A stretch of 64,000 nucleotides of DNA from the IMG/VR virus record IMGVR_UViG_3300017917_003852, positions 1 through 64,000 of that record; one strand, 5' to 3'. Made by a program: the position numbers and the translations under genes. The stretch's first letter is position 1, and every line of letters starts with the position of its first letter. Origin of the DNA: a virus. Positions 21,274-45,756 of this stretch are shown here, in pieces. Under the pieces are notes generated by a model. It was not told the origin of the DNA. It worked only from the letters and a program-made list of their open reading frames with translations, and searched no databases.

Positions 21274-21681
21274 TTATATACTCACCTCAAATTTAAAATC
21301 GTCAGGGTCATCCACAAGTTGTGATTCCTTAACCTCAGTCCAACGACCATCTATCCTAATTTCTAATTTAATCTTTGTTAGTTCGTTAGCCACAGCACGA
21401 TCAATTTGATCCATCATTCCTGTTTTTTTGAGGACTTCAAGTCGGTGCCATTTTTTGAACGTTTCCGTTTCACACATTTTGACAAAGGCGTCTCGTTTGT
21501 TTTCCAATTGGTTACGACTAGCTTCACTATAACCTCTGGCCCCTGAGGCCCTGTGCCGACAATGAACTGCGCTGCTAGTCTTATTTCGCTTCTGCCCACC
21601 TGCACCGGTTCCTTTGGTGTATGACCAATCACAGTCGTCCTTTGTTACGCTAAACAATAATTGTCTTTTACCGTTTTCCAT
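21274..21681 (-). CDS. class I release-factor GGQ-domain protein (ArfB/PrfH-like peptidyl-tRNA hydrolase)
   Basis: GTGAGGQKRNKTSSAV...H..SG...SRNQLENK; too short to hold stop-codon recognition domains. Confidence 0.85.
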   Translation of the reverse strand: MENGKRQLLFSVTKDDCDWSYTKGTGAGGQKRNKTSSAVHCRHRASGARGYSEASRNQLENKRDAFVKMCETETFKKWHRLEVLKKTGMMDQIDRAVANELTKIKLEIRIDGRWTEVKESQLVDDPDDFKFEVSI

Positions 21682-22565
21682 TATACCCACCTTAATGCAA
21701 ACTCAATTGCATCACGCTCGTTAATAAACTGCCACACAACTTGATAGTCGAACTGATCACAGAAATTTCGGTTAATAATACGATCACGCCACCCACACCG
21801 ACTGGCTTTTACGCCATGCTTTTCTTTTAACCAGTCCCACATTTCTACATAATGGTACCAATCTCGTGCAATGGTTGCGATACTGTACCGCCACAGTTTT
21901 CGATCTCGTCTTCGTTGTCGGCTGTTCATGCCCACCTCAATAAAAATGAGGTTAAATCTTGTTCAGTCTTATACACAATACCAGTGGCATAAACTTCGTA
22001 GTTGCCATTTTCATCGCACCAATCTTGCATTGGATCAATTTGAGCCCAGGAGAGCCAGTCATTAAATCCAATATGGTTATAGCGACGATCAATAGTAAAT
22101 TTACTCATGCCCATCTCAATGCAAACATTGTAGCATCATCTTGATTTTTGAACAACCACGAAGACTTACCAAACGCGGTAATTAACGCCCATTGTTTGTC
22201 TTTGTTTGAAGTATATAATCCACCTTCGCCCAATTGCCTGACACACCAAACTATCATATCCTCAACTTCATGATAGCGATCTCGTTCAAAATGTACCTGA
22301 AATGGATGCGTATGATCAACGCTCATTACGCCCACTTTAATTGGAATAATACAGCATCTTGTTCGTGTTTAAAATACCATTCGGTTTGTTCCTTTGGGCC
22401 ATCCAAAAATCCTAGTATATCAATACCTAGCTTGTACCATGCTTCGCCAAAAGGGCCTATGTTTTCTTCGCACCACTCCTGTGCCAATGGCCACTCTGGA
22501 TTGTTAATTATGATGTGGTACCGCCACTCTGGATCCATCATGTCTGTTTTTTTAACAAGTCCCAA
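21681..22565 (-). repeat. array 1 of small F-x-L-R/K-W-terminated paralogous CDSs (4 genes)
   Basis: ORFs ending at 21681, 21926, 22105, 22326 finish EFALRWV, SFLLRWA, MFALRWA, LFQLKWA. Confidence 0.8.
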
Positions 22566-24248
22566 GCTAATCCATCCCAGGGTTCAAACTCAACATCTAT
22601 CCACCCAGGGTGGTGCCGCGGTTTTATTTCCCACCACTCATTTTTGGTATCACGATAAACTGTACGGAACTTGGAGCCATAGTATGATTGAACATATTTT
22701 ATTACCCGCTCGGCATTGTTTGTAATGCTCATAAACGGGCCGCCGAGGTCTTCTAAGAACACTATACCGTGTTCTCGGTCTATGGACAAGACATGCAGTT
22801 GTGTTCTCATTATTCAATTCCAAAATGTTCTGACAGCCATTGCCTTGCTTGAAAACGTGCTATCAATTGATTCTCACCCGGATCTAAAACATTCATACAT
22901 TCTCGTACAATCAACTCAGCGAATTTTTCGTTGTCAAAATGAAGTTGTCCTTCCGGACGCTCGTTCCAGCATTGTTCAGCAAGTAGTTTAATTCTTTCGT
23001 TCATTTTGAAAGTACCTTTGCAAGATAACTATGGATCTGATCCATTTCTTCCTGTTCAACATAAAAATCGGTCTGTGGATCCCAATACTGTCCGGCTTTA
23101 GGATCATAGTATAGCACACGACCATCAGCATAAAAGAAAGGACCTTCCAGGCCTTCTCGCGGTTGCCAACGATTGTCACGCTCACCAAGAACAGCATATC
23201 CCATGATTATTCCTCTACAATTTGAGTTTGACGCATATATAGAACAAAGGCAAAAAATACACTGCCTACAATATCAAGCCCATTGTACCTTAGGGCTTGA
23301 TAACATTCACTATAGGTTGCAATACGAGTCATTATTCCACCTCAAATTCTTTATACTTGCGCCATTCCCACTCAGTGGGCTCGACTTCCTCAGACCATAC
23401 CAGTGCCTTTGCTTCGTCGTCAAACACTCTCTCAACATAGTCCCAGAATTCAACACCATTAGTGCAACTTGTAAAACCGATATACACTTTCATCACATTG
23501 ACCAATACGATTCAGAAGAAGGCGAGCAGTAGTACGGAGTATCATAACGCTCTTGGAACTTCTGGCCCGACAGCAGGTTGTCGCGAGTCACATAAGTTTC
23601 AAATACCTTTGCAACGAATCCAGCCATTTCAAAATCACGCTGGACGGTAAGGATGTGAGCCTTGGTAGTAGGTGCAAAGTCAATTACTTTTTGGAAACGC
23701 AGACCCACTCGGTTACGACCATAACGCTCGTCTTTTTTAATACGACGATCGGCTTTGTACAGTTCAACAGTATAAGCGGTAAGCTTGGACATTTGGTACG
23801 CTCCTAATTAATTACTATAAACATATTATAGCAAAATGGGTCTTTTTGGACAACCGTTTTATTTGTTGCAATTTTAGCAACAAAGTATTAGTTGCTTATT
23901 CAGCAACAGTTAGCATATTAGCAGGAACATTCCAAGTGGTAAAACCTTCGCGTACCTTGACATTTTTAATGTTAATTTTAACAACCGCACCTTGGTGGGT
24001 ACGTCCAGTTTTGGGGTGTGTGAATTTAACAACATCACCAAGCATAAGCGAACGTCTTGCATCTTTAGTAACTTGGGCACGGCGATATTTAATAGCCGAT
24101 GCGATGCTATTCAGCTGTTCGTTAGTAAAGTTACCAAACATAATTGCTGAATTAACATCCTGAATAGAAAGTTGCGACATCATTAACTCCTAGTTAGTTA
24201 CAGTTCTAAGAGTATAACAAAATGGGCAATTTAGGTCAAGTGTTGTTT

Positions 24249-24614
24249 TTATGCAACATGAAAGATAGGATATACTGCATCACTGCCAGGCATGCCGTTC
24301 CATACGGTGCGTACAATAAGAATTTTATGTTGTTCGTGTAGCAGTTGCACGCCTAGTGCTATATGATTGGTATTGTCATACAACCAAAAGTGCTGTCCTG
24401 CACCTAGTAGGCGTATTTTGGCTTTGGCTCGAGGAATTTTTGGAATAACTTCTTGAATTACAAAATCATCAACTTTGCGTTCGTGTGCTTGATCTAGTAA
24501 ATGTTCGTCCAAGAATAAGGTATAGTCGCCAACATCTAGCCTCCCCACTACTTCAGGTCTGCGGCTAAAATATCTTACGGCTGTTTGTTTATTATCAAAT
24601 TCATGAGAACGCAT
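24249..24614 (-). CDS. MRxxEF-tagged protein, possible RelE/DUF4258-like ribonuclease fold
   Basis: MRSHEF start; H..DQAHER and C-terminal IVRTVW. Confidence 0.4.
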   Translation of the reverse strand: MRSHEFDNKQTAVRYFSRRPEVVGRLDVGDYTLFLDEHLLDQAHERKVDDFVIQEVIPKIPRAKAKIRLLGAGQHFWLYDNTNHIALGVQLLHEQHKILIVRTVWNGMPGSDAVYPIFHVA

Positions 24615-24617
24615 CAA

Positions 24618-25517
24618 CTATTTAGTTTTGTATTCTTCAAGAATTTGTTCAAGATCTTCTTGAGTTACTGTAGGAAAAACAATGTTGTAGAAATGCCATA
24701 TTTTTTTTAGAAAAATTTTGTTAAACCCATGATGAAATTCTGTATCGTATGAATTAATTAAAATATTATTTTTCTTTTCTGTATCTTTAACTAATTTGTC
24801 CAGTAGCAATTTAAAATTCTGTTCTTCAAATTTTAACCTACGTAATGCATGCATTATAAAAGATGTTCGAAAATGTAAAACATCTAATTCATTGATTTTA
24901 GCTTTTTTTATAAAATTAGTGAAATGTGCTAGATGCTTAGATTCTTCTTTAATAAATTCTTTAAAAATTTGTTTTTTAATTGGATTTTTAGTATATCTAT
25001 AAAACGACATAAATGAAGTAATCAAATAACTTTCCCCAGTTACTATGTCAGCTAGAAAACCAAATAAAGTTCCGCGATCCCAATTGCTAAGTTCCGACCT
25101 AACAAGTTCTTGACAGGTTGGATTATAATAGTCAGGTTGATAATTACCGGGCTTTTCTTCCATTTTGTCAATGATAGCCCCAAATAATTCTCGGTGCCGT
25201 AATTCGTCGCTAATAATTACTTCAAAATTTTCTTTAAAAGATTGTAAGTCGGTAGGAGATAAGTGCTTATAATAATGATCTAACTCTCCGTTGTTTAATC
25301 TTTCTAAAATAGAATCATAAAAAATCGAAGCAGTACTTTCTCCATTAAAACAAAAAATTAACCAACTATTGTAACATGATTTCTCGAATAGTTTTGAGAC
25401 AGTTGCTGAACTGAGACTATTAATCCCAGGAAATAAGTTCTCATGTAATTCAAAAGGATCTTCGGCAGGAAACTCGCATTGATCTATTAGACCAAAAACA
25501 CATTCAGTATTAGACAT
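24618..25517 (-). CDS. ferritin-like di-iron protein
   Basis: paired DELRH and EESKH (ExxH) motifs. Confidence 0.65.
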   Translation of the reverse strand: MSNTECVFGLIDQCEFPAEDPFELHENLFPGINSLSSATVSKLFEKSCYNSWLIFCFNGESTASIFYDSILERLNNGELDHYYKHLSPTDLQSFKENFEVIISDELRHRELFGAIIDKMEEKPGNYQPDYYNPTCQELVRSELSNWDRGTLFGFLADIVTGESYLITSFMSFYRYTKNPIKKQIFKEFIKEESKHLAHFTNFIKKAKINELDVLHFRTSFIMHALRRLKFEEQNFKLLLDKLVKDTEKKNNILINSYDTEFHHGFNKIFLKKIWHFYNIVFPTVTQEDLEQILEEYKTK

Positions 25518-25525
25518 GTAATTAC

Positions 25526-25729
25526 TTATTTTTTAGAGCGACCGCTCTTCATATTTGCACACCAATGATACATTTTGGCTCGCTCACCACTGGCATTTTT
25601 AGCACGTTGGCGTAAATCAGTAACGGATCCCGAACAACTAGCACCAGCACGTTTAACGCGACCAGGACGGCTCTTACCTTTGATCTTACCATCGGCAAAG
25701 TTTTCTGTAATAAACTCGTATGCTCTCAT
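25526..25729 (-). CDS. small basic MRxxEF-tagged phage protein
   Basis: MRAYEFITENFADGK..GKSRPGRVKR. Confidence 0.75.
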   Translation of the reverse strand: MRAYEFITENFADGKIKGKSRPGRVKRAGASCSGSVTDLRQRAKNASGERAKMYHWCANMKSGRSKK

Positions 25730-26811
25730 GAGCGTAACCACAATACAAAGGGATCATTTACTACAATAGTTCCATCAGCTCTCTGCATATAATTTCCACC
25801 GTGTAAATCTATTGCGAATCCTTGATCCCTACCAAACTTTGCAACTGTATGAACAGTATCTAATAAATTTTTAGTATTCACTGGCCCACCTAGATATTTA
25901 ATAACTTTCTTTACGGTGTATGGATCAATTGTGCGTTTAACTTCGTTGTAATATTCTCTGCGAGCCAGATCTTTAAGAGCTTGATTAAAGTCGCCATTGG
26001 CCATATGATCTATTGCTAGATCTATATAACCGACTAAATGCTTTACTTGATCTGGTAATTCTTTTAAAGGTTCCATTCTAGCTTGAATGTAATTCTTACC
26101 ACCAAATTGAAAACTTTCAAATCCTGAAAATTTTGGTAAATGCGGATTATCTGTGTTTGCATTACAGTAATCAATCCAATTTATGAACATACGCTGGTCG
26201 GGACTAAAATCTTTATGACCTTTACGATAGCCAAATATGATCAATACTTGTCCAGTACCTGGCTCTAAGTATGCTTGTTTGTCGATGCCACTACCTAAGT
26301 ATTTGTAACCTTTATCCATTAATACTTTACGAACACCGCCGTGTATTTCTCCGGCCATTTCATCAATCGTATTCCATGCACCCGTAGATTTATCTAATAC
26401 CTCAGCATCACCAGTGCGTCCTGCGGTCCAACGTGGTAATTTTTCTTGTGGAATTCTAACTTGTGCATTAGTTGGAATATCCTTCCAAGGGCGCCCAAAA
26501 TAACCTTCAGCGTCTCCTTGGCTCCAATATTTTGTATCTGTGTCCCAAGTAGTTTTTCCAGGATTAGGATTTTTTTCAAAATAACCTGATTTTTTAGCTG
26601 CCGCTAACTCTTCTGGACTCATGTTTCTATATACATGAGTTACATCGTCGGGACTTCCAGGTACTCGACCGCCGAACATTCCGCCCTTGGGTTGATCAAT
26701 ATAATTTTTTACCTTAGGGGCCTGACCCGCTGCATAATCAACAGCATCCTTACCTAGTTTCCATAACCAGGACCGTAGTCCGCCTTCATCTAAAAAATCA
26801 TCTGCTCTCAT
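25726..26811 (-). CDS. tagged two-domain protein: possible ADP-ribosyltransferase-like domain plus kinase-like domain
   Basis: MRADDFLDE; HVYRNMSPEE; YLGSGIDK, DLHGGNYMQR, NDP. Confidence 0.55.
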   Translation of the reverse strand: MRADDFLDEGGLRSWLWKLGKDAVDYAAGQAPKVKNYIDQPKGGMFGGRVPGSPDDVTHVYRNMSPEELAAAKKSGYFEKNPNPGKTTWDTDTKYWSQGDAEGYFGRPWKDIPTNAQVRIPQEKLPRWTAGRTGDAEVLDKSTGAWNTIDEMAGEIHGGVRKVLMDKGYKYLGSGIDKQAYLEPGTGQVLIIFGYRKGHKDFSPDQRMFINWIDYCNANTDNPHLPKFSGFESFQFGGKNYIQARMEPLKELPDQVKHLVGYIDLAIDHMANGDFNQALKDLARREYYNEVKRTIDPYTVKKVIKYLGGPVNTKNLLDTVHTVAKFGRDQGFAIDLHGGNYMQRADGTIVVNDPFVLWLRS

Positions 26812-29723
26812 CTTGCTGGCACAATCGTAAATGGACCGCGATCTCTAACATCGCGAGGTGCAGTAGTGGTCATCCACTGTCTTGCATATTGGTTAGCGTC
26901 GCCTTGGTTTGTGGTGTTAATAAACGAATACACTTCTTGATCGTTACGATCTAATATTAACCAACGTGCATTACCCGGTGGCAAGCTACCTGTACCTTGT
27001 GCTTGATTTACCGGCTCAGCTTCGATGTTTCTAATGTAATAACCATTGGCGTCTAATTGCCTACGCACATAGTCCATAGCAGCATTGGAATTCGCTGCTG
27101 ACACAGTTACATTAGTAGTTCTACCATCTGTTCCAGTGTAAGTTACACGATATCGTTCTTGCCCAACACTACCAGCTGGAACCGGTTCTCCTGTTGTTGC
27201 TGGTATTGCACGTTGTCTTGCAAGTTCTGCACTGCTACCGGGAATACCTCTACCCTCTATACGACGCCAACCATAAGTTTCTGTATCATCATCTATACCG
27301 CGTCCTGCTAACCAATCAGAATATTTTCTCGATGCTTCTTGATCTGTATTGGCAATAAATCTAAACACAGGACGATATGGTACTGTACTACGATCTACGA
27401 TTTCGTAATTAGCGTCAGAACTTTGTTCGCCACCAACCGCAGGGAAGTCACGCCCTGCACTAGCAGGTTGGCCACTAAGTAAGTATGCACGATTTTGTTC
27501 CATGTCGATGATACGAATATCTTCGCGAGGAATTCCGCGTCTATTCCTTATATTATCTGCTATAGTTTGAATATAAGTCCATGTGCCTTGCTGCCCAGGA
27601 AGTAATACTTCACCGTCGTAATTATTAATGATAGAATAAATTGCCGGACCTGGTCTATTGGTGCTGCCGGATTCTCTTGATCGCATCTGTGGGCGAACAT
27701 AAACAGGATCATCAAATCCTGTTTGCTCTTGCCATCTTGCAGCATGACGCTCGGCGTCGGCAACCAAATTACCAATACCACTTATAGTATGAACAACTTC
27801 ATTAGAGTTTCTACTTACTACTTCCCAAGTGCCGGTAAATTCTTGATCTTGGCTTCTTGGTGTTTGCTGTGTATGTCTTTCTACGCGAATGTCAGCAAAT
27901 GGCACATAGGAGAATCTACCTGGATGTTCCATAGTCGCTATTTGTCGTGCCGCATAGTCTGATGTGGCACGAACTACTACTCCGCGTTCTCTGTCGTGTT
28001 CAGGATAAACCAAATAGTCTCGTGCATTAGAATCTGGCTCATTCGCTTCAATTGACGCAATTTCTAATTCAGTAGCTGGTCGTTGAGGTACTGCACGCCA
28101 TCCTCGTGTAAATTCTTCCACGGATCGTCCTGCAATGTTCAGACTCCACTTTAATATAGCACGAGCTTTAGCTTGTTCGGGACTGGTAGCAATGACTTCG
28201 GTACCTTGGCTTTGGTAAGGCGAGTCTGGAGAACCAAACACCATCCAAACAAATGGTACATCTAAGTTTGCATCGCCTTGTTGTTTTCCAATTTGTCGCT
28301 TCTGCTGAATTTGTCGAACAAAACTCTTTAGTGCTTGCTTAGGCAATTCACCAGCTGCATATTTGGCAAAGTATTGAATACTATCATCTTCTTTGCCTTG
28401 TGTTAAAGTCTTATATAACTTTTTGTAATATTCTTGTTTATATTCTTCGGGCTTGGTAGCAACATCTAATGCCACCACAGCTCGCAATAGTGTGTTCTTA
28501 ACATTACCTATACTGCCGCTACCGCTCATCCAGTCTCCGCCCGGACCTCGGAATTCAATCCACTTGTCACGATTATTAATACTGGTAAATTTCTCTGTTG
28601 ATCCGGTGTGTAGTATTTTGCTGGCTAATTGATTAAGACCACCTTGGAACTGTCTCATCATTTCTTCAACACGATCTGGATTGTTTCGTGCTTGCAACAC
28701 AATTTTCTTTAGCGCAGATTTACAGTAAGTATTACCTTCACGACCAAATTGTTCAAGAACGTAATTGTCGCCTAAGAACATGGCCAACTTTACATAATCA
28801 AGATTCTGTTGATTAGGAACGCTAACATTCATATGTAAGCCGGTGCTGTCATTAGTATAAGCACCTACTCTATTAGCCCACTTTATCACCTTATCTATAT
28901 CCGACAGCATTTCGGGAACGGTCAATGGAGGACTAACGAACTCTAAGCCAGACTCACCATCGTCACCGTGTAAGCTACCATCAGGTTCTACTACATAATG
29001 CCCAGGTCGTCTTGTGGCACCATGATAGCTAGATGCAGAATTCACCGGACGATCTATTGCATTACTAAAATCATCAGCTATGTCATCGATGCTAGTTCCA
29101 CCGCCACCATAATAGTCTGGCTCGGTCCAATATGGCCATTCTAGATCATATTCGTTAGCAAAGCTTGACATATATTCTATGTCTTCCTCTTCTAGATATT
29201 CTACAAATCGATCGTCGGCTTCGTCATTAAATTCATCTAATAGCTGCTCGCGAATATCGTCTTCGTGTTCGTCGATGTATGCTCGAAGAGCGATTTCATA
29301 TTCTTCAGTGGTGTCGTAATCGCCTTCACTTACATATTCTGTGGCAATTTCCAGTGCTCGCTCATTCCCAGAGTCAGAATCCATCCACTCGTTGAACTTT
29401 TCATCCATCCAGCCCCAGAAGTTTTCATTGAGTTCATCAATTTTTCTTTGGATCACCCCGGTGCTGCTGCCCATCGAGCCGCCACGGAAGAAACTAATGA
29501 CATCTCTCGCCCACCCGGGTCCAGTAGGAAAACTCTCATCATACTCGTAGTCAGGTTCAGATTCAAACTCATCTTCTTCATCACCAAAATAATTCGGAAC
29601 AATCAATTCAAATTCCATGCCTACTCGAGCATCAATATTTGCTGCCATTTTTGTTAAATTAGTTGGGCTCATATTAAGCTCAAATAATTCATCTTCACTT
29701 AAATTAAATTCGCGATATCTCAT
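26808..29723 (-). CDS. putative amidoligase (COOH-NH2 ligase) with repeated C-terminal modules
   Basis: VGMEFE, EPDGSL, LEFVSPP, TGLHMNVS, IEFR. Confidence 0.75.
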   Translation of the reverse strand: MRYREFNLSEDELFELNMSPTNLTKMAANIDARVGMEFELIVPNYFGDEEDEFESEPDYEYDESFPTGPGWARDVISFFRGGSMGSSTGVIQRKIDELNENFWGWMDEKFNEWMDSDSGNERALEIATEYVSEGDYDTTEEYEIALRAYIDEHEDDIREQLLDEFNDEADDRFVEYLEEEDIEYMSSFANEYDLEWPYWTEPDYYGGGGTSIDDIADDFSNAIDRPVNSASSYHGATRRPGHYVVEPDGSLHGDDGESGLEFVSPPLTVPEMLSDIDKVIKWANRVGAYTNDSTGLHMNVSVPNQQNLDYVKLAMFLGDNYVLEQFGREGNTYCKSALKKIVLQARNNPDRVEEMMRQFQGGLNQLASKILHTGSTEKFTSINNRDKWIEFRGPGGDWMSGSGSIGNVKNTLLRAVVALDVATKPEEYKQEYYKKLYKTLTQGKEDDSIQYFAKYAAGELPKQALKSFVRQIQQKRQIGKQQGDANLDVPFVWMVFGSPDSPYQSQGTEVIATSPEQAKARAILKWSLNIAGRSVEEFTRGWRAVPQRPATELEIASIEANEPDSNARDYLVYPEHDRERGVVVRATSDYAARQIATMEHPGRFSYVPFADIRVERHTQQTPRSQDQEFTGTWEVVSRNSNEVVHTISGIGNLVADAERHAARWQEQTGFDDPVYVRPQMRSRESGSTNRPGPAIYSIINNYDGEVLLPGQQGTWTYIQTIADNIRNRRGIPREDIRIIDMEQNRAYLLSGQPASAGRDFPAVGGEQSSDANYEIVDRSTVPYRPVFRFIANTDQEASRKYSDWLAGRGIDDDTETYGWRRIEGRGIPGSSAELARQRAIPATTGEPVPAGSVGQERYRVTYTGTDGRTTNVTVSAANSNAAMDYVRRQLDANGYYIRNIEAEPVNQAQGTGSLPPGNARWLILDRNDQEVYSFINTTNQGDANQYARQWMTTTAPRDVRDRGPFTIVPAR

Positions 29724-31078
29724 TCTATAATCTCTGGATGTTCTTTGCCGTATAATTTCATCAGGTAGCCGGCTACGGCATCGGCTTCTTGTTCTATAGG
29801 TGATCCCGGATAACTTTGGTCACCATGCACACGACGATCCTCGTGTTGCTTACGATGTGTTAATTCATGTGCCACGGTACGCATTATGTCAATCATGTTT
29901 CTGTTACCAGTGTAAATCCACATGATATCTTCTGCATCGTCATAGTATCCAGTACGATGTTGATCTGGTCCTTCCTTAGCATCCTGGAATCTAATTTGAG
30001 GAAGTTCTTGTTTAATCTTTAATTTTTTTACGCACCAGTGAATAAAGTCACGTAATTGTTCTTCATGATCACGGAATGTGCTTTCTGTTAAATTATCAGC
30101 ACGAGTGAATGTATCTACTATTTTATAATGCTTGGGTCCTACTAATTCAAAGTCATACTTGTCATCGTCATCTATATTAAAAGGACGAAGAAAATGCTTT
30201 GTCTTACGCTTAATTGCTAACGCACCGTTAGGAGTAAATCCTGTTTGCTCGAGGTCTGCACGATAAACTCTACCCATCGCACCAATTACCGCTAAATCAA
30301 CTTTATAACCTTGCTTCAACAATCTATCAGTAATGGTAACAATCTGGCTGATTCCTTCACCATCATCACCATCCCGGTCGTCTAAGAATTCATTAACCTG
30401 TGTTTCCGCCACACCTTGCTCACCGTGACGAATACTACCGTCCTTCATCAACTTTAAGTTGAGATTGTATTGTTTATTGTCGTGCTTGACTTTGTTCATA
30501 CGACCTGCTTTGAAGCCTTTGGCAAAGTATTGTTTATACATTCCATCGTGTTGGGTGTGCCAATAGTTTATCTTCATAGCTCGTTCTAATGTTGCACCAT
30601 CAGCAAGACTTACGCCTTTAGTGAAACCATCCTCTTGTGCCATCTTGGCAATTTCTGGACTAAATCCTTCATCGTCATCATCACCGTTGAGTCCATCTGG
30701 AGCGAATTCGTTTAACTGTGCATTGAAAATTAACTCCGCAAGTCTAAGAGCATTGTCTCTAGTTTTTGGAATAGCTACACCGGCTTTGCGGCCTCTGCCG
30801 AATCCTTGTTCATAATCAAGCAAATGAATATTAACAGTAGGGTATTCACCTTGACGACCAACTACACTGTAAAGCATTGCACCATTGCGAGATTTGTCTT
30901 TTGGTTCAAACTTCACACTAACTTGTTCAGGTTTTTCTCTATCCTGTCTTGTATATCCACGACCTAAATATTGCTCTATAATATCAGCAAATTCAGTTAG
31001 TGGAAAAGAGTCAGGATCGTCTCTGCCACTATCACCGTTGGTGTCTAAAAATTCCCTTAAAAAATCACTTGCTCGCAT
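29720..31078 (-). CDS. tagged multi-module protein with C-terminal HExxH metallopeptidase-like domain
   Basis: MRASDFLREF; VAHELTHRKQ...EQEAD. Confidence 0.65.
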   Translation of the reverse strand: MRASDFLREFLDTNGDSGRDDPDSFPLTEFADIIEQYLGRGYTRQDREKPEQVSVKFEPKDKSRNGAMLYSVVGRQGEYPTVNIHLLDYEQGFGRGRKAGVAIPKTRDNALRLAELIFNAQLNEFAPDGLNGDDDDEGFSPEIAKMAQEDGFTKGVSLADGATLERAMKINYWHTQHDGMYKQYFAKGFKAGRMNKVKHDNKQYNLNLKLMKDGSIRHGEQGVAETQVNEFLDDRDGDDGEGISQIVTITDRLLKQGYKVDLAVIGAMGRVYRADLEQTGFTPNGALAIKRKTKHFLRPFNIDDDDKYDFELVGPKHYKIVDTFTRADNLTESTFRDHEEQLRDFIHWCVKKLKIKQELPQIRFQDAKEGPDQHRTGYYDDAEDIMWIYTGNRNMIDIMRTVAHELTHRKQHEDRRVHGDQSYPGSPIEQEADAVAGYLMKLYGKEHPEIIE

Positions 31079-31955
31079 TTCTTTTTGCCTTTTCTTGGTC
31101 GTCTTGACCTTTTAAGTATTTGTTAAATTGATTTGCTATAAATTCATTTTTTTTACGTTCTGCATCGGTAACTGTATCAGCAGCCATCCTAGCACTACTC
31201 ATTACACCAGATCTAATCGCTGGATCTAGCGCAGCGGTTCTCAATGATTTATCTGTTAAACGATCTAGAATACTAGTAAAGCTTGGTTGTCCTCTTGGTA
31301 TTTTAGTAGGAACCTGGGCGCCAACATTTCCTCCAATGTCAGAAATAGGTCGCGGACTCATTGAGTAACCTCTATTTACAAACTTATTAGACAAATCAGC
31401 ATATTTGCTACTAGCTTGTCTATAAGCAGCCGGTCCGCCAAATTGCTGTATTTCTTTATCTATATTGCTATAGCTAGGAGGTTCCATTCCGTATTCTTTT
31501 CTAAAGGCTTTAGCAGCATGAAACTTTGCTGTTCCTTCTTCGCGACCGATATTTTTAGCAGTTAAAGGATTATATGGATGTGGCTTATTAGCAAGATCGT
31601 ATCCTATATCTTTAATTTTACCAACAGTATCTTTAGCAAGTTCCGGTGCAACTGTAGCTGATTTTGCTGCTGCATCTGCTGCTGTTCTTGTACCTACATT
31701 CCTTGCTAATCCTGTAACACCTTGAACTACTTTTTTACCTAAACCAGCAAAAGGAAATAAAATATCTTCGGGACTGATTAAGGGTGCTTCTAATCCAGGC
31801 TCGATAGGCCAACCTCGTTCATCTCTAGGTAACGTAACATTTTTACCGCGGTTTTCCGCCGATGGCACATACCCTTGTGGCATCCAGTCCTTTTGTAACT
31901 CTTTTCTTGCAGCCTCTACATCGTCGGCTTCATTTATAAATTCATGAGCTCGCAT
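31065..31955 (-). CDS. MRxxEF-tagged hypothetical protein
   Basis: MRAHEFINE start. Confidence 0.65.
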   Translation of the reverse strand: MRAHEFINEADDVEAARKELQKDWMPQGYVPSAENRGKNVTLPRDERGWPIEPGLEAPLISPEDILFPFAGLGKKVVQGVTGLARNVGTRTAADAAAKSATVAPELAKDTVGKIKDIGYDLANKPHPYNPLTAKNIGREEGTAKFHAAKAFRKEYGMEPPSYSNIDKEIQQFGGPAAYRQASSKYADLSNKFVNRGYSMSPRPISDIGGNVGAQVPTKIPRGQPSFTSILDRLTDKSLRTAALDPAIRSGVMSSARMAADTVTDAERKKNEFIANQFNKYLKGQDDQEKAKRNASK

Positions 31956-32595: not shown

Positions 32596-32609
32596 TTTGT
32601 ATTTATTGA

Positions 32610-34557: not shown

Positions 34558-34568
34558 AATTTACCTCT

Positions 34569-34685: not shown

Positions 34686-34712
34686 AATGTACATAGTTTA
34701 TTACCTTTTTGA

Positions 34713-35859: not shown

Positions 35860-36022
35860 CTTTTTTTGCTAGGAACTGCGGCAGATTTAAAAGCGGCCAT
35901 TGCTTCAACATCGCTACAGCCAGCATTACGCTGGATATATTTCACCGCGTCACGGGTGTTAAGTTGAAGGATGAAAATTGCCTCGTCGGCGAATTTTTGT
36001 GCTCGGGTCATGCTTGTTTCCT

Positions 36023-36430
36023 TTACCATGAGGAGTTGTAAAAAACTTTAAGTCCAGTAAAAATTTCGGCTCGCGCCTTACGTATAAATTCTAGATCCTG
36101 CTCGCGATAGTAATCATCGCTAGGATCACCAAAAAAGAAACCTGTAGTATGCGGAAGCACACCATTTTTTATATCCGCTTCTAGAGCATCAAGGTCCTCC
36201 CAAGTAAGTTCAAGTTCAATACCATTAAACATTGGATCTGTAGTTGGATCAGTATTTTTACTGCGCCAAAGTTGTTCCATCCAACCATGGAGGTTAGGAT
36301 GTTTGCGCCAATACGCAATTTCTACAGTCGGATCGGCTACATTTTTATTACCTTTTTCGTAATACTCTTCATAATACTCATCTTTAGCATTACGTTTAGC
36401 CGCAGCGTAAGCATACATATCCAAACCCAT
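36023..36430 (-). CDS. hypothetical phage protein (MGLD...YWRKH...YNSSW family)
   Basis: AGGAG RBS; promoter 36459-36487. Confidence 0.75.
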   Translation of the reverse strand: MGLDMYAYAAAKRNAKDEYYEEYYEKGNKNVADPTVEIAYWRKHPNLHGWMEQLWRSKNTDPTTDPMFNGIELELTWEDLDALEADIKNGVLPHTTGFFFGDPSDDYYREQDLEFIRKARAEIFTGLKVFYNSSW

Positions 36431-36859
36431 GATATCTCCTATAAATTACAATAAAACAATTATAGTTAAAAACTGATTTTTGGTCAATCGTTTTTTGGAA
36501 GCTTAACTACAGTTAATTTGTTACTATTGGTTTTAAATTTTGGTTTAGGTTTAGATGGTGTAAATTCTTTGCTTACATAATATTCGCAAAGGCGATGACG
36601 ACACAATGTAGGAATGTCTTCGAAACCGGGTTCAAGGATAAATTGGTAAGGACTACGACCCCACGTGGAGAATTTTAGAAAATTATAGTAGGCCTTACGA
36701 TGTTCTTTAATTGTTGAATCAAATACTGTGGGCGGACGGCAATTTAATAGCAAGTTATTCATTGTCAATTCCTCTATAGATTTAACAAGTGTATATACTA
36801 GCATAAGAAAAAAGCCCTGTCAAGCAGGGCTTTTTAGTGTTGTATTTTTACAACAATGT

Positions 36860-37078
36860 TTATTTTTTAGCAACAGGTTGCTTAGGGAAAAAAGCAGTTG
36901 CTGATTCAGCAACAGTTTTTGCTAAGTCAAAACTGGTGTTATAAACAGTTTTGGTAAAAGTTGCATTTGCATCAACTAGGGTTTCTAGGCTAGCACGTAC
37001 ATCTTCATTTGGAACATGGATCAAAACTGATTTGGTTGTCTTTACTGCGTTATCAACTACTGTATCTACTGTAAACAT
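36860..37078 (-). CDS. phasin-like protein
   Basis: Ala/Thr-rich amphipathic 72-aa protein; AAGGAG RBS; upstream ATGTTGC-GGT-GCAACAT palindrome. Confidence 0.45.
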   Translation of the reverse strand: MFTVDTVVDNAVKTTKSVLIHVPNEDVRASLETLVDANATFTKTVYNTSFDLAKTVAESATAFFPKQPVAKK

Positions 37079-37222
37079 TTGAATCTCCTTAAAAGTAATG
37101 TTCAATGATTATACTATATTTACATGTTGCGGTGCAACATTTAATCTACCCATATAATGATTTTATTTGTCCGTTTTTAATGGCTAAATATTTTACAACA
37201 TATTTCAAGGAGATGTTTAAAA

Positions 37223-37531
37223 ATGGAATTTCTAATTCTTATTATTGCAGTTATTGCTGTACTTGGTTGGTTTATTTGGAAGGATCGGAAATTTGAAGAT
37301 TCCAGTTCTCATCCGTTAGATGGCGCTACCAAAAATGCAGTTGTTGAGACTCTTGACGTTAATAAGGACGGCAAAGTTGATCTTAAAGATGCTGTAGCCG
37401 CTGCTGAAGTAGTAGTTGAAAAAACAAAAAAGACTGCTACCAAAGCCAAGGAAGTTGCTAAGAAAACTGTAGCTAAGGCCAAAGCTAAGGCTCCTGCTAA
37501 GAAGACCACTGCAAAAAAATCAGCTAAATGA
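37223..37531 (+). CDS. membrane-anchored protein with EF-hand-like loop and Lys/Ala-rich tail
   Basis: N-terminal TM; DVNKDGKVDLKD; AKK repeats. Confidence 0.75.
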   Translation: MEFLILIIAVIAVLGWFIWKDRKFEDSSSHPLDGATKNAVVETLDVNKDGKVDLKDAVAAAEVVVEKTKKTATKAKEVAKKTVAKAKAKAPAKKTTAKKSAK

Positions 37532-38652
37532 TAGAAATATTGCCACTGACTAATGTCAGTGTTTATACCGATACTGGCGTTAGTTCGTGGCATTTCTTTC
37601 AACTCAATGACTATAAGTATAGATTTTATTCTAAAGATTTATACAACAACGTCGAAGAATTTTTATCTACTAATACCGATCTAAAACTTGCTGGGTTCCA
37701 TGTGCCATTTCCAGCTAACCGCGATTGGCTTGATCGGTTTGATCGAGTTTATAATCATGTTGCACACACCTTTATATTCTGTTCAGAATTACACGAATCA
37801 ACAGTAAATCAACTAATAGCATTAGATAAACCAAATGTATCTATATACATTTGCGGGCGTATTCGACATCGTTTCCAACATGCCCGTGTGCATCTTTGGA
37901 TGGACTGGTTTATTACTACTAGTCATTTTTATAAAAACATACGCCCGGATCTACTAGGACAAAAATTACATAACAACAATAAAGAAAAATATTTTGATGT
38001 TCTACTAGGTTGTGCTAGAACACATAGAGATTTTGTATATTCTGTAGTCAATGATAAAAACTTAAATGATAAAGTGATAATGAGTTATCACAAATCAGCT
38101 AATCAAGATTTAAAGAATACTTCGTTTGTATTTGAGACTGAGGGATTAGAATTCGAAGAGACTAGAACCTATCAGCACACTATCGATCCTGTGGTGTATT
38201 ATGGTAAAGGTATGTCTTTAAGTCAAGTTATACCAATAACTGTATATAATCAAACTCATTACTCAATAGTAGCAGAAACTAACTTTAGTAATGATTACAA
38301 TTTTTATACCGAAAAAATAGTTAAGCCGATACTTGCTGGAAGACTGTTTATTGCCATTGCTGGGCAAGGATATTTAGAATTCTTACGCGAACTTGGTTTT
38401 CGTACTTTTAGTAATGTAATAGATGAATCATATGATCTTGAGCCCGATAATCTAAAAAGATGGGCTATGGCGATGAATCAGGTTGAACTATTATGTTCTA
38501 TGGATGCCGACAAAGTTGCTGAAGAGATTAAAGAAATAGTTAGCCATAACCAGCAACTTATGTTAAAGACTGACTGGTATGGCCAACTAGCACGTGATTT
38601 TATTCTTGAATTGGATTCATTCTTAGGGCCTGCTCATATAATTGCCGGCTAG
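37528..38652 (+). CDS. glycosyltransferase-like protein (paralogue of 52073..53326)
   Basis: SIVAET...TEKIVKPI...LRELGFRTF..IDESYD. Confidence 0.55.
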   Translation: MIEILPLTNVSVYTDTGVSSWHFFQLNDYKYRFYSKDLYNNVEEFLSTNTDLKLAGFHVPFPANRDWLDRFDRVYNHVAHTFIFCSELHESTVNQLIALDKPNVSIYICGRIRHRFQHARVHLWMDWFITTSHFYKNIRPDLLGQKLHNNNKEKYFDVLLGCARTHRDFVYSVVNDKNLNDKVIMSYHKSANQDLKNTSFVFETEGLEFEETRTYQHTIDPVVYYGKGMSLSQVIPITVYNQTHYSIVAETNFSNDYNFYTEKIVKPILAGRLFIAIAGQGYLEFLRELGFRTFSNVIDESYDLEPDNLKRWAMAMNQVELLCSMDADKVAEEIKEIVSHNQQLMLKTDWYGQLARDFILELDSFLGPAHIIAG

Positions 38653-39637
38653 CCAAATTTTTAGCTTTGCTTTCGCACATAATATCAAATTGATCGCGGA
38701 AGCTGAGTGCCCATTCATTCACAGAAGTATTCCAATAAAAGTTAGAGTGTGCTCTAAGTTTTTGTCTGTTGTGGCCTTCAGTTAGTAATGTTGCAAAATC
38801 AGGCTGTACAAAGTCTGGGTGCCCAACCAAGCAATCTTCGCGACTAACAGAGTAATGCATAGTAGGCCTAACACCACGCCAGCTATCCACCACCATTTGT
38901 ACCCTATCATCGGTGGGCGATATATACTCTCCACCGCTTTTGATCCAATGGTGATGAATGTCCATAACGATAGGCAAGATATCGCTAAGAGTAAGACATT
39001 CGTTGAGTCCATAGCCTATTTCTTCGTTTTCGATGGTAATGGTATTTCTTGCTTCTGGGGATAACCTCGTGTATGCACTGCGGATACCTTGGGGACCGAG
39101 CTTACCCGCGATGTGGACGTTGATCTTAAAGTCCTGGAAGGATCGGCCATAGCCCATCCAAGCGGCCATTGTAGCATGATATTCAAACTCCTCTATACTT
39201 TTATTTACAACGTCAGGGCGATCACTCGCCAAGACAGTAAACTGACCGGGATGGAAGCTAAGACGAGTCCCACTGTCCATAGCCAATCGTCCCACTTCAT
39301 TGAAGTGCGTTTCACAATACCGTCGTACATCTGCTTGCTGCCAATAATAAGACCAACTAGGCTCAGTATAGCAAGGCAATATATCGCTGCTAAGACGCAC
39401 CATTCTAAGATCTGGCTCAAGATTTCCTACCCTTTCTACAAGCTTACGAGTTGCTTCAATATTCTGGACCATGAGGTCCCATAGTTTTTGTTCGGCCACA
39501 TCACGCTTTTGCCTGTTGAGCCATGCAACAGTAGTGGCGCCAGTGTTGTATTTTTTCGCATCGTCCTTTGGTCCAATGCCATCAACTTGAGTTTCATTGT
39601 CGATCCATTTGCATGCAAAACCAATTCGTTTAATCAT
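38600..39637 (-). CDS. uvsE: UV damage endonuclease
   Basis: RIGFACK, RLSSD, RLSFHPGQF, ENEE, DIHHH, AHS, MCESKAK. Confidence 0.92.
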   Translation of the reverse strand: MIKRIGFACKWIDNETQVDGIGPKDDAKKYNTGATTVAWLNRQKRDVAEQKLWDLMVQNIEATRKLVERVGNLEPDLRMVRLSSDILPCYTEPSWSYYWQQADVRRYCETHFNEVGRLAMDSGTRLSFHPGQFTVLASDRPDVVNKSIEEFEYHATMAAWMGYGRSFQDFKINVHIAGKLGPQGIRSAYTRLSPEARNTITIENEEIGYGLNECLTLSDILPIVMDIHHHWIKSGGEYISPTDDRVQMVVDSWRGVRPTMHYSVSREDCLVGHPDFVQPDFATLLTEGHNRQKLRAHSNFYWNTSVNEWALSFRDQFDIMCESKAKNLASRQLYEQALRMNPIQE

Positions 39638-40902
39638 TGTTTTAATTTACCTTCTCTTACTGTTTCTCGTTTTGTAAATTGTCTTGCTATAAATTCGTCG
39701 GCTAGTTGTTCAGTATCAAATGTTTCTTCTAACAGCCAATTGCAACTAGAGCAATCTAGGCTTTCGTATTGGAAATATACTTCGTATTTTTCTTCACCTA
39801 GAGTATTTGTCACTCGAACAATCTTATATGCCTTACCGGCACCTCTCCAAGTAAGTGCAGCAAACACAATTATTATAGCAGGAATAGATAAAAAATACAC
39901 TAGATCCATTAACATTATTCTATCCCAAAATGTTGTTTTATTTTTTTGATTTTATGATCAAGTAGTTCTAAGCCATCAACACCGCCAAGATACCCTTGTG
40001 CCCACACTTCATGCTCTTCAGTAGGCTGCACAACTGCTATACATTCTTGCACAACTAATCGAGCTAGTTCTTCGTTATAAACTTCTATCCAGCGAGGCAC
40101 ATCCAAACCCGACGGAACTTTTTGCTTGGCGGCTGCTGCTAATTCTTGTATTCGCTCGTTCATGCGTTCTTTAAAATATACATAGTTAAATCAACTGCAT
40201 CGAGTCTAACAGTTTCGTAAGGATATTTACGATAATCTGCATCGTTCCATTTGCGGCGGCGAGTATCTAAACTTTGTATGCTTAACATTTTTGGATTAAG
40301 TTTAGTAATCTTACCAATCATTAATCCATTATGATCCGGAAATGCTACTGCATCTCCAACGACAAGGGCTCTACCTAGTTTGTCTTGATGTTCGTAAATC
40401 ATGATATTGCGCTGCCTAGTCCAGTAGGGCAGTTGTTTTGTATGCAAACATATCCCATTGCACCTTCTAATAGCAACCCGCATTTTGGACATTTGTTTGA
40501 CACTTGGGTAGTTACTTCAGGAACATCCTGCCAGTCTGACCATTGATAATTTGCAGTTCTTAACATATCTTCATTTGACCAGTTTAGTCCTGCACGAATG
40601 GTAACATCGTATTTCTGACGATATTGTAGTCTGCGACTGTTATCGTTATTCACTAGCCAACGCATTTCGATCATTTATTCTGCTCCGCTTGTTGAAAACA
40701 TTCTAAACAAAGTACATAGGTTCTAGGGCCACCCATGCCGCTAACAATTCGATTACATTGACTACAACCAATTACTGCGGCAGTATAAATGTAACCTTCT
40801 TTTAGTTCTTCAATAGGTCGCCAGTTACCCGAGTGTGTTCGTTCCCAACCTATAATGTTTGTATCATCCATAGTATAATAATAGCAGTTAATTGATTAAA
40901 TG

Positions 40903-43900
40903 TCAATTCCACATTAAGGCAATATGACTAGCATAAATGGCATGTTTCGCTCTCATCCGGATAGTTAGACGTCCGTTTTGTTCGCCGGTTTCGATATTTC
41001 TTCCGTGCCATGCTAATTGCCAATCCCAATCCCAACCTTGGCGTCCGATCCATTGTTCTAAAAATGGACGGTAATGATCATTTGGGTCTGCGGATTCGAA
41101 CCCTATCCAAACAGCTCCACCTAAGTCTGCCCATCGGGGATCATTATGATCTACTACTATTTCGCCTGAAGGCCATTTTACATCTATTTCAATGTAATCA
41201 ACTAACCACCAATATAATTTTTTAAAGATGCTCACGGTACGGATAAACCTTTCTTACACGATAATTATGACAATGAGAACAATAACGAGTTTGGATATAT
41301 TTGTCTGTATTTTTATTAACTTGATATGGCTTACACCACCGTGTCCAAGAATGCCAACCAAAGTTGCACCAAAAACTAGTTACTAGTGGTTCTTCATCCT
41401 TTAATATCCTAGCTGTATTTTCAACTTCGTTCATTTTACCCCAAATTTTAAAGCAAATAGTATAGCAGGTTCTTCCCACTCAAATTGAAAAATATCGTAA
41501 GTTCGTTGATGCACACTTCCCCATTCTACATGAAAACGACGAAAGTGTTTTCCTTCAGTATTATAGTTTAAACACCAGTTATACATTTCTTCTGTGCATT
41601 TTGGCACACGAATTCTATACCTAAAATACGGACGATGCCCACCTTCGCAATGAAAGTATTCCATTAGTAATTGTACTCAAACGTACCCCAACCTAGTAAG
41701 GTTCTAGGTGTGTTTTTTCGAGCTTGTATCCACATGTAACCATCTTTGTCGTATTCGCTAAACCAATCTACATAACTTTTGTTGTAAAGAATATCTTGCA
41801 TTTCCCAAAGATAATTTTTTGGATACTGATAACATGGATCGTCTCCTTTGTATCGACGCCGCATCGGCAATTTTTGCGATGGGTGTTCTGATAGTACCAT
41901 CAAAAGATGCTCTTGTTCTAACTCCTTAAGGGTAATAGGAACGAAGTTTGCCTTATGATACAAACTAGGCAAAGCTCGATCGACCACTTTGTTGTAATCG
42001 TATTCTCGAATAATAACTCTGCGTCGTAATTGTTTCTTCATGCAAACCTCAGTGCAAATTTTACAGCAATTTGTGAATCATCAAACCAAAATATATTGCC
42101 CGTCCATGAATAACGATTAGGATGATTTTTACTAAGCCAACCGTGTATTTCGCCCCATTTCATATAGTTGGCGTGTATTGGAATATAGCCGGCACGCTCA
42201 AACTGTTCGCAGTGAGTTTCATGTACCACAGGAGAACCGTCGAGCTGTGTCCGAATAAATGTTCTAATCGGTATTAACTCACTCACGCAAACCTCAGTGC
42301 AAATTCTGTAGCAGCCTTTTCGTCTCGAAAGACAAACATAGTATCTGTAGTTTCTAAATCCTCTACATCACCTACAATCCATTGATTATAATAGCACCAG
42401 TCGTCACCGTTAAGCCAGTGGTTAATCGATCCTTCTCGACCGCCATAACGAGCACTGCCTTGTCCGGCATTTGCTGCTAGCCAAGATTCAATTTCCGCCT
42501 TTTTATCTCGCATTGTGTTGAAAGGTACTTTAACTTTGTTCATTGCCTGCCCATCTTAATAAGAATAATGCTTTTTGTTTCTTATTACTAAAATAAAAAG
42601 TTTTATTATAGTATCCCCACTCATCTTCCATGACTTCATCTAACCATTTGCAGCGTTGGACAATATCGTCATTATATAATAAAGTATCATACATCTCATA
42701 CGATTCCGGATATTGCAGTTCTAGCAGCAAAGTTTGGTCCATGGCATCAGCTAGTTCCTTTGCTACTCGATTTACATATTCTTCTGCTATGTCCATTATG
42801 CCCACCTCAATAAAAACCAAGCGAATTTCTCTTCATTAACAACTCTATAATCTTCGATAGTTATTAACCTCGCGTCCATTTCTATTTCTATACCATACTC
42901 ATCTAGTATGCGATGCAATTGTGCGTCATATCTTGGACTGCCGGTGATTACTCGTGCTTGCCCGGTAATGGGCCAAGATCGGTGCTGCCCTTCTTCGTTC
43001 CATTCTCTACTTAGAATTTTCTGTAGTTCGCCGGGTGTCATGCCCACCTCAATGCAAAATGTACAGCATCTTCTCTATTTTCAAATTGAATAAATTTGTC
43101 AGTAGTCCAACCAGGATTGTGAAAATACATACCTGTGCAATTCTCTTCTAACCACCGATCAACTAACCAATCCTTGTAACTGCGACGAAATCGGCTTTGG
43201 ATATTATCGTAATCGTATTTGGCATATACTACTGTGTGTAAAGGCATTATCCGCCCCACCTAAGCATAAAGAATGTAGCATCCTCTTGACGCTTGAACAC
43301 AAAGTAAAGACCGTTGTTGCGCCAATTGCCACTTTTAAAATTCTCGTAGCAAAATCTCTGCAACCTTTCGGATTGCCCCCAAGCATCTACTTCAGGAAGC
43401 ATACGAAATTGATGCGGCCAATATTTTTTATTATAGGTTTGCATAGTCTGCGGTTAATGCATTTAAAATAACTTGATTGCGTTCAGCTTGCCAACTTTTA
43501 AGCCAAGGAGTACGATCACATTCCTCAATGTGTTTTAAAATTTGAGTGCGGCTACTAGATTCAATTGCTTCATGTAATCCAATCATCATAACTGGTTGTC
43601 GCCAACGATATACTACTATACACATTTTGTCATCGGGATGCAAGTTCCATGCCCACTCATAAGGGTAATCACCATCAAGATCTGGAATATCACTTAAATG
43701 TTTAAATTTCGTCATAATAATCCTCTACCACAACCCAACCTAACTTTTGAAAGTCTTCTCTAATCTCATCAGTAATAACACTTTCTGCTACATACTTTCT
43801 TAGATCAAATCCTTGCGCTAGTGCTGCTTCGTAGTCAATTTCTTCTGGATTGCCGCGAATACCCGAACAATACCAATTCATGTAATCACCTTCGCACCGA

Positions 43901-45756
43901 ATGTCGGCAACTACGCCACCGGCATAGCGCCAAGTACAGGACCATATAGCATCTTTAAGTATAGGCACGACTTCCATTTTTTGGAATGCATTATTGCATA
44001 GTGCGGCATAAAGATTTTGTGAGTATGCGTCACTGGCACGTACTTTATCCACAAACCACTTTGCGTCTTTCATGTCTCGTTCTAAATTGTAATCCATTAT
44101 TGTCCTTCCCATTTTAACTGAAATAACATTGCATCCTGTTCGTTGGTGAATTCAAACTCGTATCGAAGATACCAATCTTCATCCGCAAGTTCGCTTTCAT
44201 ATACTAGCCAACAAACAAAACTAGGGCAATTTTCTCTTGCCCAAGTTGAGAGTTCAATCTCGTCGATGTCAAATAATACTACTATTGCCATTTTAGTAAA
44301 AAATTACTAGCGTCTGCTTCGTTTTCTATAACTACCACCATACCTTGTTGATGTTTCCGTCCGTTAGGCAAGCACTGATCCATCCATGCATATATTTCTG
44401 GCTCATTGTCCGTCCACCAACGAAAGTCAGTGATGATTATGTAATAATATGGCATCTCTTCATCAAACGGACCGGTGGCGATAAATCTGCCTTTGTCGTC
44501 TGGAAACACTACGCTCACTGTTTTTGTTCCTTTTCTTTAGGTGCTTTTACTGCACAAATGGCAACAAAGCCTTTGCCATCCCATTCTTTACGAGCATCCA
44601 TACACGCTTGATAATCGGGATATTCTTTTTTGTAAATGAATTTTATTTGTGGTGGCGGATCAGTCCAAAGTTGCACAACCAATATCCAAGGCATTAAGTC
44701 TAACATATCAGTTCCTTAATATTTCAAAAGTCCATTTAGCACTATCGGGATCTACTTCAAACCATAATTGATTACTTTCGTCTAGCCATACAGTAAAACC
44801 TTTACTGGTAAAAAAATCTACAGCAATTTGTTTAAATCGTTGATCATCGTAGTCAGGAATAGTTTTAGCTTCTTTTTGAATAGCATGTAGTTCATTGGTA
44901 TAATAATTTAGAATATGAGCGTGAAACCATTCGGGTGCGTATCTAAAAGAGAATTGCATTTCAACTCCACCTTAACAAAAAAGTCATCATTTCTTCTTCA
45001 GTATCAAACTGCCAAAGATCGAAACTCATACGACGCCCACAATTATGTTCTTGGCACCACTCTTGTGCGGGCATTAACATGTGCTCACGCAAGCCAGTTG
45101 GTGTTACTGCACCATGTTCGTGAGCTAATTGTACTCTTAACCAATAACCTTGAGGGCGAGGCCAAGACTCCCATACTAATTTCATGTTATTTTTATTCTG
45201 TCAGTATTGGCTCTATTGCTATACACTTTATAACCGCGCTCTCGCATTAGATCTGCTGCTGCCTGAGGACTGTCATCGAACATTAGTTCGAGATCCTCTT
45301 TAGTAATATCATTGCTGCAATCGATGGCGTACAGTTCATAATGCCGCTGACTATTAACTCTGGCCCTTAGTAGCATTTGTTGAAGCATACCATTCATTGG
45401 ATTGCGAACAGGCTCTTCGTCATTGAGAATCCTAAAAGTATTTTCTGCGTCCCAGTGTTCATACTGAGTGATAGGAATAATGCTTTCTAGTCCTTCTTCA
45501 CACCAATAAACAAGATATGCGTTAGTAGTCATAGATATTTTATTTGAAAAAATGTTGCTCGAGCCGGATCGTCAAAGTCTAATCTAATATCAGTTGCACG
45601 TTGATTATATTCATCGTAACAAAAATGTGTTCTAACTGTAAAACCCAATTCTCTTTTTAAACGCCAGGTTATTAAAAAAATTTTATCGCCGTGCTCGTTC
45701 TCAATGCGTTGGCGCAAAGTTTTCCATTCTGGTTTGCTAAAGATCAAAGTGGTCAT
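40903..45756 (-). repeat. array 2 of small F-x-L-R/K-W/F-terminated paralogous CDSs, interspersed with other small genes
   Basis: clear members end at 41431, 42038, 42283, 42530, 42796, 43038, 43247, 44097, 44282, 44961; degenerate members at 40903, 44708, 45529. Confidence 0.8.

Follow-up and report, generated by a model that had tools for sequence, protein, structure and literature searches.

Conserved C-terminal tails and the initiation signals of neighbouring genes in two gap-free arrays of phage mini-protein genes

Two arrays of small related genes

We analysed bases 1-64000 (the window) of the 78,424-nt IMG/VR virus record IMGVR_UViG_3300017917_003852, which carries two arrays of small genes whose products share a conserved C-terminal tail. 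Members of this family were sought by motif scanning, MAFFT alignment and hidden Markov model (HMM) searches in the six frames of the whole record, and the family was defined by profile A3 and the ending F-x-L-[RK]-W. Scanning for the ending F-x-L-[RK]-[WFY] returned 15 to 17 minus-strand open reading frames (ORFs) and 5 plus-strand chance ORFs. The window contains 15 members of 60-86 aa, all on the minus strand, with 4 in array 1 (21681-22541) and 11 in array 2 (41431-45756), and the full tail motif reads F-x-F-x2-3-[ED]-D-A-x2-F-x-L-[RK]-W. In a leave-one-out HMM test (threshold E<1e-3), 13 of the 15 were recovered with E-values of 3e-12 to 3e-4. The other two, 42796-43041 and 45529-45756 (E 2.8 and 1.8), have only the last strand and helix in common with the family; hhalign over the last 20 residues gave 79% and 73%, respectively. 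The first-pass annotation of this DNA had described about 17 paralogues of 60-110 aa. The family and its C-terminal motif are borne out by the scan, the alignment and the HMM test, whereas the count comes to 13 firm and 2 tail-only members and the sizes are narrower. A second shared motif, W-C-x-E-N-x-G, lies in helix 1, and a Trp in strand 2 is also conserved. Therefore, the homology spans the whole domain.

Several neighbouring genes (referred to here by their first coordinate) were rejected as members. The small genes 45182, 44708, 44515, 43702, 43431 and 41664, which are interleaved with the members of array 2, gave hhalign values of at most 6%, as did 41222, 40903, 40671, 40160 and 39915. 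The ORF 40903-41235, at which array 2 had previously been taken to start (40.9 kb), scored 0.6%. The ORF 63063-63317, earlier counted as a further copy, had an HMM match that was not significant (E 0.56), and the same was true of 63545-63913.

A profile search among 1.84 billion representatives found 1,725 clusters (50% identity level) at E<=1e-3. The median length of the best 150 clusters is 72 aa, and their C-terminus lies exactly 1 residue past [RK]W in 100 and at most 3 residues past it in 128. The sources annotate the clusters as hypothetical, none carries a Pfam domain, and the Atlas neighbours are 86-100% viral. No Pfam, PHROGs or NCBIfam family matched the window members or 123 homologues, PDB sequences gave only chance matches to the family profile (E >=0.2), and a search of the Atlas limited to named clusters returned no family. 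A relative of the 44282 type was absent from 185,579 bacterial and archaeal species genomes, and a related-locus search for 43038 in viral contigs found none. By these searches, the family is undescribed and is seen in viruses only. Longer fused forms were absent apart from tandem two-domain proteins of 122-161 aa (P0044, P0113 and P0116, from metagenomes), which hint that the domains may pair.

The best AlphaFold model, that of 22105-22326 built with 123 sequences (pLDDT 87), has a strand at residues 9-13, a helix at 15-32, strands at 46-51 and 54-59, and a helix at 62-72. The second member modelled, 43038-43247 (pLDDT 74), has the same core with an additional N-terminal hairpin; the two folded members share a strand-helix-strand-strand-helix core. 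The tail forms the last helix of this compact fold (pLDDT 89-94), and the i, i+3/4, i+7 spacing of its A, F and W residues suggests that it packs in the core. The earlier picture of a variable head on a constant tail that docks on one partner is not supported by this arrangement. Foldseek searches of the PDB with both models returned nothing at E<=0.001, and the best BFVD match came from an uncultured phage and is itself uncharacterised (E 0.011, TM 0.70). The order of secondary structure elements is that of ferredoxin-like, ACT and RRM sandwiches, and VIA gave Z 5.8-6.7 to ACT and similar domains. However, the fourth strand of these sandwiches is absent, there is no sequence relation, and such Z values are in the range of common arrangements. 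No sequence or fold relative of characterised function, such as one that would link the family to known anti-defence proteins (anti-CRISPRs and others), was found in Pfam, PHROGs, NCBIfam, PDB or BFVD.

The tail and the start of the next gene

Each of the 15 tails in the window ends in a stop codon that overlaps or adjoins the start of the following gene (ATGA, GTGA, TAATG or a longer overlap). Runs resembling a Shine-Dalgarno (SD) sequence occur at these tails: GAGG or AGGTGG in 8, GGAAGGA in 1 and weaker runs in the others. The Arg-bearing tails of the window use AGG in 8 of 10 cases and AGA in the other 2, against an AGG share of 6.9% among the Arg codons of the 72 long ORFs (binomial P 2e-8). 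Where other genes have Arg within their final six codons, AGG accounts for 5/38. A codon-pair bias of Arg-Trp was rejected as the source of AGG, as none of the 20 other Arg-Trp dipeptides uses this codon. The first-pass annotation had read AGG in seven tails and had proposed overlapping starts after them; both observations were confirmed and extended.

The comparison was then widened to 46 records, comprising the window and 45 loci (5 viral contigs, 1 locus for array 1 and 39 metagenome contigs), and the fetched related loci contain 192 family ORFs. Each tail was assigned a distance d, counted from the first base of its Arg/Lys codon up to the A of the following start codon. At d=8 (AGG TGG NNA TGA), AGG was used in 24/30 tails, and at d=11 (TAATG) in 14/26. 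At d=13, AAG was found in 16/23. At d=2, where AGA or AAA followed by TGG supplies the ATG, AGA was found in 16/28 and AAA in 10/28. When the start was at d>=14 or none was present, AGG made up 15/62 Arg codons. The difference between tails near a start (d 8-13; 40/55) and those far from or without one (15/62) gives a Fisher P of 1.5e-7, with counts that include related orthologues; the AGG background in the relatives is 8.8%. Lys tails use AAG in 62% of cases against a background of 23-27%. In the 46 records, the Arg/Lys codon therefore varies with how far away the next start lies, in agreement with the earlier proposal that the tail doubles as the ribosome-binding site of the next gene.

The same switch is seen within a single orthologue group. 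In the 42283 group, all genes coupled through ATGA or GTGA have AGG (9/9), whereas those in the last position of an operon, with a TTGAC promoter after them, have AGG in 3/14 and AGA in 11/14. Synonymous sites of the orthologues are near saturation, with a median synonymous divergence (dS) of ~1.5, and the ratio of nonsynonymous to synonymous divergence (dN/dS) has medians of 0.10-0.30 among the groups, indicating purifying selection. Therefore, the retained AGG is not explained by simple shared ancestry.

Near-consensus promoters of the form TTGACC-17-(TG)TATAAT lead both operons. Promoters are present at operon borders only (45790, 40906, 24239 and 23853), and the cassettes have no DNA between them: array 2 packs 19 genes in 4,854 nt with zero intergenic bases. 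The sigma70-type sequences would fit early expression of the arrays. The first ATG of array 2 lies 5 nt past the -10 box of the 45790 promoter, which suggests that its first cistron is leaderless. A 7-bp inverted repeat, ATACTGC TATAAT GCAGTAT (45755-45774), holds this -10 box in its loop and includes the start codon. The spacing TATAAT-N5-7-ATG recurs at five minus-strand promoters of the window (Table 1), suggesting that this class yields leaderless transcripts; other promoters (24239, 19853 and 36487) are followed by a leader that contains a strong SD sequence.

Table 1. Features of the two arrays and of other parts of the window.
Feature	Position	Strand	Tail, junction or remark
sigma70-type promoter TTGACC-17-(TG)TATAAT, heading array 2	45762..45790	-	TATAAT-N5-7-ATG class
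Marginal, tail-only member, first cistron of array 2	45529..45756	-	ends ..ATFFQIKYL; next start overlap ATGA; orthologues present at 22 loci
Family member	44961..45185	-	AGG TGG AGT TGA A ATG
Family member	44282..44518	-	AAA TGG, codon pair forms ATG of next gene; most widespread orthologue group of the members
Family member	44097..44291	-	LKWEGQ gives GGAAGGA before TAATG start
Family member	43247..43444	-	AGG TGG GGC GGA TAATG
Family member	43038..43247	-	TTG AGG TGG GCA TGA
Marginal, tail-only member (FLLRWA)	42796..43041	-	TTG AGG TGG GCA TAATG; one copy of a 19-nt repeat
Family member	42530..42796	-	LRWAGNEQS with AGA; 14-nt overlap with next start
Family member	42283..42543	-	CTG AGG TTT GCG TGA overlapping GTGA start
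Family member	42038..42286	-	19-nt direct repeat AATTTGCACTGAGGTTTGC on both sides; missing in L010 and L011
Family member	41431..41664	-	FALKFGVK; next start overlap ATGA
sigma70-type promoter TTGACA-17-TATTAT, end of array-2 operon	40878..40906	-	TATAAT-N5-7-ATG class
sigma70-type promoter upstream of array-1 operon	24211..24239	-	
Second promoter upstream of array-1 operon	23825-23853	-	
Family member, first of array 1	22326..22541	-	AAG TGG GCG TAATG
Family member	22105..22326	-	TTG AGA TGG GCA TGA; L007 orthologue has AGG
Family member	21926..22108	-	TTG AGG TGG GCA TGA; 19-nt repeat shared with 42796
Family member	21681..21929	-	AGG TGG GTA TAATG; coupled to the RF-1-domain gene
RF-1-domain protein with GGQ motif	21274-21681	-	Pfam E 3e-11; adjoins last array-1 member
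Weak bL12 C-terminal-domain match	20229-20627	-	23.2 bits, cut-off 25.9; last gene of array-1 operon
Promoter	~17930-17961	-	TATAAT-N5-7-ATG class
Promoter	~13060-13090	-	TATAAT-N5-7-ATG class
Promoter	~490-521	-	TATAAT-N5-7-ATG class
UDP-glucose/GDP-mannose dehydrogenase	50844-52070	-	block rigidly syntenic across all relatives
Radical SAM/SPASM protein	46103-47413	-	
Amidoligase-domain protein, 971 aa	26808-29723	-	
Two-piece circularly permuted tmRNA	14674-15084	-	tag ANAANDEVFALAA; Rfam beta_tmRNA 144.8 bits, tmRNA_permuted 149.3 bits
ATP-dependent DNA ligase	11342-12655	-	
tRNA, anticodon CTA, reads UAG	9625-9700	-	tRNA-Pyl per ARAGORN

Age and plasticity of the arrays

The paralogues of the window share no more than 37% identity in partial alignments, and each has its own orthologues in relatives at 45-92% identity. 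Together with the purifying selection described above, these sequence comparisons indicate that the paralogues are old, individually maintained genes, and not a fast-diversifying library. Two pairs of junctions, 21928/42798 and 42042/42287, are identical over 19 nt, exactly as reported in the first-pass annotation, and none would be expected in shuffled sequences. The identical junctions encode identical hexapeptides under the same SD constraint, and a chance identity of this length was estimated from codon usage at roughly 0.03-0.1 per same-peptide pair. An identical 14-nt stop/start overlap also occurs at 43702/43715, 43431/43444, 42530/42543 and 41222/41235, which may be chance.

All relatives share an unchanged w50844-w46103 flank, whereas the array is variable. 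Its backbone consists of 45529, 45182, 44961, 44515, 44282, 43247 and 42283, and genes 44708, 44097, 43702 and 43431 are optional. The stretch from 43247 to 42283 and the genes past 42283 differ widely among relatives, and downstream of the 42283-type gene at least 6 different neighbours occur. Genes resembling 22105 and 22326 of array 1 are placed in array 2 at four loci (L014, L028, L042 and L043), and L007 lacks the block of 21926, 21681, the RF-1-domain gene and 21048. The relatives carry 3-6 copies of the family in fragments of 22-79 kb, compared with 13-15 here.

Some of these insertions and deletions are compatible with a tail-to-tail event, namely those of 44097 alone, of the block 43038-42796-42530 and of 42038. 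In L010 and L011, the tail of 42283 is joined directly to the 41664-type gene and 42038 is gone. Non-family genes (43702, 43431 and 44708) are lost too, and some blocks end at a non-family gene (21048 in L007; 41222 in L027 and L035). Breakpoints are not placeable to the base at 50-90% protein identity, and recombination at the tails is possible from the sequences. The shuffling envisaged earlier thus stands in so far as content and order vary among relatives and the arrays are not static; recombination at the shared 3' ends is only a possibility here, since non-family genes vary as well.

Interpretation and comparison with known systems

We propose that the arrays encode stand-alone mini-domains of an undescribed, phage-only family with a strand-helix-strand-strand-helix core of ~55 residues; the family would have expanded here, and its 13-15 old paralogues lie in two gap-free operons under host-type sigma70 promoters. 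Because the domain almost always ends 1 residue past Leu-[Arg/Lys]-Trp, these codons fall at the site where the initiation signals of the next cistron belong. A choice of AGG (or AAG) yields GAGGTGG at 5-9 nt from the ATGA or TAATG in which the next gene starts, upstream of it, and a choice of AGA or AAA lets the final A and TGG themselves form the ATG. Ribosomes would be passed from one cistron to the next, presumably by reinitiation. The arrays would be hyperplastic regions, in which gain, loss and movement affect whole genes of the family and other genes alike. We assign this explanation as a whole a probability of about 0.6.

Several observations weigh against this explanation. The test of codon choice counts related orthologues and carries no phylogenetic correction, and the coupled and uncoupled forms of the 42283 group are partly split by two clades. 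AGG still makes up 24% where no nearby start was found. A clear SD sequence precedes only about one-third of the genes of this genome, so the phage is not heavily SD-dependent. On the structural side, the wide VIA search gave generic two-layer alpha/beta sandwiches with Z <=6.7.

As for the function of the proteins, they may be accessory early binders with different host targets, serving take-over of the host or counter-defence. The small size, early-type promoters, hyperplastic setting, virus restriction and diverged surfaces on a conserved core are consistent with this tentative assignment, whose chances we put at somewhat under even. It is doubtful, although conceivable, that the family owes its spread to the Leu-Arg-Trp-x-stop tail acting as a portable translational adaptor, with 15-19 nt of tail homology mediating the gain and loss of cassettes and their transfer between arrays. 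Equally doubtful is what such an adaptor implies: immediate expression of any gene placed downstream of a member, and insertion of members at any point of a coupled array without regulatory cost. An adaptor of this kind would be the coding, translational equivalent of the promoter-bearing PeSL cassettes known from T4-type phages.

The first-pass annotation had viewed the proteins as a library in which the heads vary while a constant helix docks on one partner, with cassettes shuffled at their 3' tails. The variation in content and order, the movement of members between arrays, the position of 42038 between exact 19-nt direct repeats with its absence from L010 and L011, and the tail-to-tail compatible events listed above all agree with this view. 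We consider it unlikely, as the compact domain includes the tail as its last helix, whose conserved hydrophobic residues are spaced as in a core, helix 1 holds another conserved motif, and other insertions and deletions are bounded by the non-family genes 43702, 43431, 44708, 21048 and 41222. The 19-nt identities are explicable by chance at the rate estimated above and need neither conversion nor recombination. Still more improbable is a role on the translation machinery, in which the proteins would be ribosome- or rescue-associated factors working with the GGQ release-factor-like protein of the phage, the bL12-like protein, the tmRNA and the suppressor-type tRNA. Array 1 is co-operonic with the bL12-like gene and the RF-1-domain gene, the latter directly coupled; the window also encodes the tmRNA and the tRNA with anticodon CTA; and some of the weak fold neighbours are ribosome-factor domains. 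However, L007 retains two array-1 members without the RF-1-domain gene, array 2 has no translation genes, and the structural matches (Z <7) are to generic two-layer alpha/beta sandwiches. This link is a weaker rival to the accessory-binder assignment and is ranked below it.

The least probable reading is that the AGG excess and the identical junctions arose through shared ancestry or gene conversion between tails instead of selection for ribosome binding. The members are indeed paralogues, two pairs of junctions share 19 nt, and AGG persists at 24% in tails with no detected coupled start. Against this, the paralogues have low identity (<=37%), the dS among orthologues is ~1.5, the codon switches with the junction geometry inside single orthologue groups, and the Lys tails likewise favour AAG.

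In classical operons such as trp, genes are coupled by overlapping stop and start codons, with the SD sequence inside the upstream gene. The arrays share with these operons the ATGA, TAATG and GTGA overlaps, the GAGG 5-9 nt before the start and inside the upstream coding sequence, and a synonymous codon choice that serves the downstream gene. They differ in that a family-wide structural motif, Leu-Arg-Trp-x-stop, carries the coupler in every member, and in that the same codon pair supplies the ATG itself in 28 junctions. Coupling by overlaps is textbook knowledge, and the family-wide structural motif as the coupler is what is new here.

The setting also resembles the hyperplastic regions of T4-type phages, where PeSLs act as mobile regulatory cassettes (Arbiol et al. 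2010, PMC2839356; Comeau et al. 2014, PMC4122927) and provide the closest model for the shuffling of early ORFs. A PeSL is a non-coding promoter with a terminator stem-loop, and recombination between PeSLs has been shown experimentally (PMC2839356). Both systems have small non-essential ORFs of unknown function in early-type sigma70-driven regions, a content that varies among close relatives and a short, repeated signal for expression where genes meet. In contrast to the PeSLs, the repeat here is coding and translational, and no promoter or terminator lies between cassettes. Phages G and 121Q have tandem arrays of small genes whose copies are very similar, which points to recent duplication (2017, PMC5646251). 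The present arrays are likewise tandem amplifications of small genes in giant phage genomes; however, their copies are at most 37% identical, have their own conserved orthologues and form two arrays.

The family would provide a countable case of dual coding, with one stretch of codons both specifying a structural motif and starting the following gene, and with a codon choice that can be predicted from the geometry of the junction. Should the tail also ease cassette exchange, giant phages could assemble and remodel long accessory arrays without added promoters or spacers. The more than 1,700 clusters with no match in the libraries searched, which are probably expressed early, would be an unexplored pool of candidate host-takeover and counter-defence proteins of lake phages.

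Regarding the source, the 78,424-nt record has a CheckV completeness of ~20%, which would mean a parent genome of several hundred kb. Relatives of the family are carried on contigs of 337,915 and 207,307 nt, and a 346,168-nt contig is listed in one protein cluster of the family. No GenBank phage matched by blastn or tblastn. Nearly all long ORFs of the window are on the minus strand, and the GC content is 32-43%. The other genes identified are listed in Table 1. The RF-1-domain protein is read from its sequence as probably ArfB-like, and the Rfam match of the tmRNA hints at a betaproteobacterial host. The stop codon TAG closes 6 of the 72 long ORFs; as TAG is still used as a stop, the tRNA with anticodon CTA may act as a suppressor and need not indicate full recoding.

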